64,000 nucleotides of DNA from Escherichia coli O127:H6 str. E2348/69 (GTDB lineage Bacteria; Pseudomonadota; Gammaproteobacteria; Enterobacterales; Enterobacteriaceae). This document shows positions 41,287 through 42,113 of the stretch, in pieces. The stretch is taken from the NCBI RefSeq assembly GCF_000026545.1, contig NC_011601.1; one strand, 5' to 3'. The position numbers were made by a program, and so were the translations under genes. Every line of letters starts with the position of its first letter. The stretch's first letter is position 1. The notes beneath the pieces were generated by a model. It searched no databases, was not told where the DNA came from, and saw only the letters and a list, made by a program, of their open reading frames with translations.

Positions 41287-41320
41287 TAAAAAAAGGCCCC
41301 TGTTGAAATTGCAGGGGCCT
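41287..41320 (-). terminator. Rho-independent terminator downstream of cutC (also the MicL 3' end)
   Basis: Minus strand reads AGGCCCCTGcaatttcaaCAGGGGCCTttttttt. Confidence 0.75.
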
Positions 41321-41595
41321 GGTACGAGCAAGCATCATATTGGGCGACATGATGCAACGGTAAAAATCATTTGGCCTGATGGCGTTCAATGATTCCTTTC
41401 ATTTCAGCAACCGCCGCCCCGTCTACGACATAACGCGAATACTCGTCCGCGTGTGCATCTGATGACATGGACAATCCTTGATTACGATAACGCATCGGTG
41501 AGGCTTGCCACGCTCCCGCGGAGCTATGGACTTCCAGCACTCCGGCATCGAGGAAGTGGTGCAGGTTTTCCGCACGGACTCCTGCTCCGGCCATA
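41288..41595 (-). ncRNA. micL: MicL (RyeF) sigma-E-dependent sRNA embedded in the cutC 3' region; ends are approximate
   Basis: Known to start inside cutC and end at the cutC terminator; a GGAACTT sigma-E-like -35 element lies on the minus strand at 41632..41638, at the right distance for a ~308-nt transcript. Confidence 0.45.
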
Positions 41596-42113
41596 ATGAT
41601 TGGAGCATCACGATGGGCAATAAGTTCCATAATTTTTGATAAACCTTGCAGTGCGTCTGATTTTTGCCCTGATGTCAGTACCCGGGCAATGCCCAATTCC
41701 GTAAGATTATTGAGTGTATTTAAAGGGTTAGCGCACATATCGAAGGCGCGATGAAAAGTCACTGCCAGCGGACCGGCAGCAGCCATTATTTTTTCCATTC
41801 GTGGCATATCGACATTCCCGTCAACATCGAGAACGCCCGTCACCAGTCCAGGAAAACCTAATTCGCGGACTGTGCGCACATCTTCAAGAATGGCGGCAAA
41901 CTCACCGTCGCTGTAGCAAAAATCACCACCGCGTGGGCGGATAATCGGATGCACTGGGATCGTCACCCGCTGGCGCACGGATTTCAGTACCCCCAACGAC
42001 GGCGTTAAGCCCCCCTCTTTTGGAGCTGCGCATAATTCAACTCTGTCAGCGCCGTTTTGCTGCGCCGTTAGCGCGCATTCCATGCTGTAACAGCAAATTT
42101 CCAGTAATGCCAT
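41367..42113 (-). CDS. cutC: Copper homeostasis protein CutC
   Basis: 248-aa TIM-barrel [21 protein letters not shown]... Confidence 0.95.

Follow-up and report, generated by a model that had tools for sequence, protein, structure and literature searches.

The DNA at positions 41288..41643 of the window (the whole 64,000-nt stretch that was analysed), read on the minus strand, is almost certainly the micL gene of an Escherichia coli O127:H6 E2348/69-type chromosome. Identity between the window and strain E2348/69 is 100% over all 64 kb. When the 64-kb window was scanned with Rfam, the MicL model RF02654 matched 41595..41288 on the minus strand over model positions 1–308 of 308, without truncation, with a score of 371.4 bits (gathering score, 56; E = 4.2e-112). 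[quoted passage not shown] The gene order yecM–cutC–(micL)–torY is common to the window and K-12 MG1655, in which the ncRNA micL (b4717) is annotated as overlapping the 3' end of cutC, before torY. The genes concerned are:

41367..42113, minus strand: cutC coding sequence, 248 aa, with stop codon TGA at 41369..41367; taken from the open reading frame list and annotated as cutC in E2348/69, CFT073 and K-12
41288..41595, minus strand: MicL primary transcript, 308 nt, corresponding to the RF02654 match
40979..39879 (coordinates in the order given): torY, downstream of the cutC terminator

The cutC coding sequence carries the MicL promoter together with the 5' part of MicL (about 226–228 nt). MicL was described in 2014, is present in Rfam and is annotated in K-12, and nothing about it here is biologically new. 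The first-pass annotation had read the locus as encoding a sigma-E-dependent sRNA that is transcribed from inside cutC, shares its terminator and represses lpp, and this matches the account of MicL in Guo et al. 2014 (PMC4102768). It had also taken the locus to be intact, which is borne out by the full-length RF02654 match and by a promoter and a processed form, MicL-S, that are both identical to K-12. The comparison with the known MicL sequence that it proposed gave 305 of 308 bases identical to K-12 and a match to RF02654 from end to end. Its further suggestion, that phenotypes historically ascribed to cutC may reflect MicL, is not a new idea: PMC4102768 already traces the copper sensitivity of cutC mutants to missing MicL, which leaves Lpp in excess, and not to CutC.

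The promoter elements and the start site lie inside the cutC coding sequence, in the following order from upstream to downstream:

41629..41643, minus strand: A/T-rich stretch TTTATCAAAAATTAT, directly upstream of the −35 element and largely conserved across genera
41622..41628, minus strand: −35 element GGAACTT of PmicL, of sigma-E type and identical to K-12
41605..41621, minus strand: spacer between the −35 and −10 elements, 17 nt
41600..41604, minus strand: putative −10-like element TCCAA of PmicL, inside the block GCTCCAAT (41606..41599) and identical to K-12
41595, minus strand: MicL transcription start, mapped from PMC4102768 and equal to position 1 of the Rfam model

GGAACTT, a 17-nt gap and TCCAA immediately upstream of +1 would together make up a sigma-E-type promoter, for which the −35 consensus is GGAACTT with the core GAAC (PMC3326320). 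Sigma-E promoters use A/T tracts between −65 and −35 as UP elements (PMC3326320), and TTTATCAAAAATTAT (41629..41643) is a possible UP element of PmicL. Promoter bases −85 to −1 are identical to K-12. The distance from the start site to the stop codon is exactly as published (41369 + 226 = 41595; PMC4102768), and the micL feature in the K-12 RefSeq record begins 1 nt further in, at the equivalent of 41594. A CGT triplet lies inside the spacer at 41612..41610 (minus strand) and may be the codon affected by the published R-to-H copper-sensitivity mutation, which is described in PMC4102768 as lying between the two promoter motifs. A synonymous promoter mutant, '-10C-T', was made in K-12 (Guo et al. 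2014, PMC4102768).

Earlier work on this DNA had placed GGAACTT on the minus strand at 41638..41632. The motif is present on that strand, but the position was wrong: those bases read CAAAAAT, and the true coordinates are 41628..41622, a slip of exactly 10 nt. The rest of the proposed geometry held up well. The −10-like element, expected about 16 nt later, was roughly right, with TCCAA following after 17 nt; the start estimated near 41595 fits the true −35 position and is where the published start maps; the promoter, put at roughly 310 nt upstream of the terminator, has its start site 307 nt from the 3' end; and the terminator, placed at 41287..41320, agrees with our coordinates within 1 nt.

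Relative to K-12, MicL carries three substitutions, all of them in its 5' coding part:

41571, minus strand: MicL +25, G for A relative to K-12; synonymous, with an A-U pair of the Rfam structure kept as G-U
41455, minus strand: MicL +141, C for A relative to K-12; CutC E220A
41429, minus strand: MicL +167, G for A relative to K-12; CutC I229V

Over its whole length, this cutC differs from that of K-12 at 15 nt and 4 aa, with none of the changes in the promoter and none in MicL-S, and the cutC stretch is identical to that of CFT073 and Nissle 1917. The differences are unevenly distributed: the first 412 nt contain 12 of the 15, and the last 335 nt, where the promoter and the MicL part lie, contain 3. 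This pattern fits an extra constraint from the embedded RNA gene, on counts that are small. We consider it very unlikely that the substitutions at +25, +141 and +167, which are shared with CFT073/Nissle-type strains, alter the stability of long MicL, the efficiency of its processing or some other activity of the 308-nt form. By prediction, the full 308-nt RNA folds almost as it does in K-12 (one pair differs, at +167), and nothing was found in support of such an effect. The 5' part of MicL is dispensable for cleavage and regulation, as described in 10.1101/341578 and in PMC4102768.

The short form of the RNA and its terminator lie at the 3' end of the locus:

41367..41368, minus strand: processing site as given in PMC4102768, in sequence identical to K-12
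41288..41367, minus strand: MicL-S, 80 nt as published, the processed active form, covering the full cutC 3' UTR
41328..41358, minus strand: stem-loop A, MicL-S +10 to +40, found in the MFE and the centroid fold
41319..41330, minus strand: seed UGCUCGUACCAG, MicL-S +38 to +49, pairing with lpp coding positions +16 to +28
41288..41320, minus strand: intrinsic terminator common to cutC and MicL, with the stem GGCCCCUG/CAGGGGCC

MicL-S is 100% identical to K-12 (80/80 nt) and has a minimum free energy of −28.8 kcal/mol (z = −5.15), with 0 of 200 shuffles folding as well. Its terminator hairpin is predicted to span +48 to +74. The two predicted hairpins are the stem-loops A and B described by Updegrove et al. 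(bioRxiv 10.1101/341578), and at the level of sequence the features associated with processing are in place. In that study, RNase E makes the MicL cut, two stem-loops 3' of the site position the enzyme and sequences at the 5' end are irrelevant to cleavage.

In the terminator, 41319–41312 pairs with 41302–41295 around a loop of 9 nt and is followed by U7 at 41294–41288. A terminator hairpin with a U tail of this kind would suit the Hfq-binding type of 3' end; PMC4102768 describes both MicL forms as bound by Hfq in K-12 and reports co-immunoprecipitation with Hfq for K-12 and Salmonella. A generic terminator scan, which accepts loops of 3–8 nt, passed over the MicL/cutC terminator, whose 9-nt loop exceeds that limit, although the hairpin is clear in both sequence and fold. 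Three terminator-like matches within cutC and yecM were set aside, their count being equal to the chance expectation.

The target gene lpp is absent from the 64-kb window, and the lpp sequences used were the K-12 copy and that of the E2348/69 record, which are the same over the promoter, 5' UTR and coding sequence. Of 5,426 complete E. coli genomes, 5,424 have an lpp that is at least 99% identical. The computed seed duplex joins MicL-S +39..49 (41329–41319) with lpp +16..28 (codons 6–10) at −16.7 kcal/mol, with one bulged U, and its position coincides with the experimentally defined seed (PMC4102768). According to that paper, pairing between MicL-S +38–49 and lpp +16–28 was proven in K-12 via compensatory mutations, and lpp is given there as the sole MicL target in K-12. 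An extended duplex between MicL-S 1–49 and lpp reached −36.2 kcal/mol (z = −2.7 versus shuffled sRNAs; 7/1000). Because this is only moderately better than the shuffles, support for the pairing comes from the short seed together with the published compensatory mutations.

The promoter and RNA were then considered across E. coli and related genera. Of 5,426 complete E. coli genomes, 5,424 contained a match to a 373-nt query covering both; identity was at least 99% in 4,843 and, among the matches listed, never below 97.9%. A 1,001-nt query made up of cutC and part of yecM reached at least 99% identity in only 1,070 E. coli genomes. The cross-genus sample came from a contig scan of a collection of ~298 Gb with the 15-mer CTCGTACCAGGCCCC, taken from the seed and terminator, which returned at least 120 loci; about 110 of those listed were chance matches in unrelated, mostly GC-rich taxa, because a 15-mer is too short for a collection of ~298 Gb. 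Among the matches listed were 10 enterobacterial loci, and the Rfam MicL model matched 8 of them (E. albertii, six Citrobacter and Siccibacter colletis); it had no match in two 'Enterobacter sp.' loci (L022 and L069), which were dropped. That Salmonella and Klebsiella are missing from this sample is an artifact of the scan and not evidence of absence.

The window, K-12 and the 8 non-E. coli loci were aligned (10 sequences from 4 genera), a small sample in which the 15 bait columns are uninformative owing to ascertainment bias. All pairs of stem-loop A are kept in the 10 sequences, except for one gap in Siccibacter, and there is no covariation. The Siccibacter terminator has one compensatory change (U-A to G-C) and one change from G-C to G-U. 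MicL-S varies so little that covariation says almost nothing about it. The Siccibacter colletis locus (L057, 1085–1396) is the most distant MicL homologue recovered among the matches listed, at 58.9 bits against the threshold of 56. GGAAC, GCTCCAAT and the seed are retained at this locus, but identity to the window in the coding part of cutC is only 62%, and the locus gives a marginal view of the outer range of the MicL family.

Taken by itself, the sigma-E motif is not significant. GGAACTT alone occurs 10 times in the 64-kb window versus 6.6 expected, and the full pattern GGAACTT-N15-18-TCNAA gives 1 match versus 0.19 expected, with at least one match in 17 of 100 shuffles. On these figures the motif could be silent or fortuitous here, the sole RNA being the 3' end of the yecM–cutC mRNA and MicL-S being made only by processing of that mRNA, a source from which, according to PMC4102768, MicL-S can also be obtained. 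We regard this as extremely unlikely. The −65..+20 segment in the window is base for base the K-12 segment that drives sigma-E-dependent GFP at nearly the strength of the micA and rybB promoters (PMC4102768), and processing of the cutC mRNA is an additional route to MicL-S, not an alternative to transcription from the internal promoter. Across the four genera, from Escherichia to Siccibacter, neither GGAAC nor GCTCCAAT varies, even at the synonymous third positions of GGAAC (41628 and 41625), while the spacer between them drifts: only 2 of the 15 columns at 41607–41621 are invariant across genera, and the codons there vary freely.

Conservation of this kind might also be sought in the CutC protein (residues M-E-L...A-P-I), with a plain terminator behind it and no regulatory RNA function. 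The promoter motifs do overlap conserved codons, and throughout the aligned coding sequence 61% of first and 69% of second codon positions are invariant. Constraint on the protein does not account, however, for third codon positions, of which 4 of 5 are invariant in the motifs compared to 18 of 101 elsewhere (p = 0.006); over all positions, 14 of 15 motif columns are invariant compared to 144 of 301 in the remaining aligned coding sequence (Fisher p = 4e-4). Nor would a plain terminator need a non-coding 3' UTR that is conserved beyond the coding sequence, as in Citrobacter, where MicL-S outside the bait is 97–100% identical compared to 78–80% for the coding sequence. These cross-genus figures agree with the conservation described in PMC4102768. 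The MicL-S seed is, in addition, complementary to lpp, and the function of MicL was demonstrated genetically in K-12 with compensatory mutations, as reported in PMC4102768. An explanation by protein constraint and a terminator is therefore, in our judgment, close to untenable.

The identification of the locus as micL thus rests on the Rfam match, the identity of the promoter to K-12 and the cross-genus conservation of synonymous sites, because the motif alone is not significant. Computation established membership in the family, identity of all functional parts to K-12, complementarity of seed and target, conservation of the promoter at its synonymous positions and a distribution that covers nearly all E. 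coli. The gene is a clean textbook case of a promoter preserved at synonymous sites within a coding sequence.

Because every functional base is identical, the sigma-E dependence, start site, processing, Hfq binding, lpp repression and copper phenotype known from K-12 very likely hold in E2348/69 too. When the envelope is stressed, or in stationary phase, sigma-E holoenzyme would start at 41595 from the promoter embedded in the cutC frame, and the 308-nt transcript would run through the end of cutC and the 3' UTR to the intrinsic terminator of cutC. RNase E, placed by the two 3' stem-loops, would then cut within the TGA stop codon to give the 80-nt MicL-S (41367–41288). Together with Hfq, the seed at 41330–41319, between stem-loop A and the terminator, would pair with codons 6–10 of the lpp mRNA, and this pairing would block lpp translation and lead to decay of the mRNA. 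Reduced synthesis of the very abundant lipoprotein Lpp would be expected to relieve the load on the outer membrane and to feed back on sigma-E.

What matters in practice is annotation. micL is unannotated in the RefSeq records of E2348/69 (window 41288–41595 equals NZ_LT827011.1 2016501–2016808) and CFT073, while the same E2348/69 record annotates other sRNAs, for example RprA. Both records still name cutC as 'copper homeostasis protein CutC'. [quoted passage not shown]

Several other features of the window were recorded alongside. Further Rfam matches above the gathering score lie at 6074–6218, 37310–37352 and 53466–53543, and none of these is annotated in the E2348/69 record. The Rfam families found are SraC/RyeA with its antisense partner SdsR/RyeB between pphA and yebY, ES036 (CssrF) just after cmoB, and C0465 between tar and cheW. 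Between cheR and tar, the E2348/69 record has a 152-bp frameshifted and incomplete remnant of a gene for a Tar-ligand-binding-domain protein (51560–51711). K-12 has tap between cheR and tar, and the tap chemoreceptor appears to have been lost in E2348/69. The araH gene is truncated, with 62505–62888 left and the N-terminus missing, and the remnant adjoins an IS4-like ISEc13 transposase gene, which begins at 62901 and extends beyond the end of the window.

Positions 50001–64000 match about 27–30 places in each of the three E2348/69-type chromosomes. For 25001–50000, there is a median of 27 matching places per E. coli genome and more than 150,000 places overall; because of this median, the segment must hold a short dispersed repeat, which is probably of the REP/BIME type. 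The argS gene (ending at 44642) is followed almost directly by flhE (44695–45087), as in CFT073 and unlike K-12, in which yecV and yecT follow argS.

Compared with known systems, the locus is closest to MicL (RyeF) of K-12 (RF02654, b4717), with which it shares location, synteny, promoter, start-site context, processing site, MicL-S, seed, terminator and lpp, and from which it differs by three single bases in the 5' coding part of the long form. DapZ is a 3' UTR-derived sRNA with its own promoter inside the upstream coding sequence. CpxQ and ArcZ, which are processed 3' UTR sRNAs, resemble MicL in sharing the terminator of a protein-coding gene and in maturation by RNase E (10.1101/341578), although the sensitivity to RNase E differs among MicL, ArcZ and CpxQ (10.1101/341578 and PMC4102768). 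MicL joins both routes, with transcription from its own internal promoter followed by cleavage to the short form. MicA and RybB are, like MicL, sigma-E-dependent Hfq sRNAs with promoters of similar type and strength that repress abundant outer-membrane proteins under envelope stress, as described in PMC4102768. They differ in being free-standing genes with many targets (31 mRNAs), whereas MicL lies within a coding sequence together with the 3' UTR, and lpp is its single reported target (PMC4102768).
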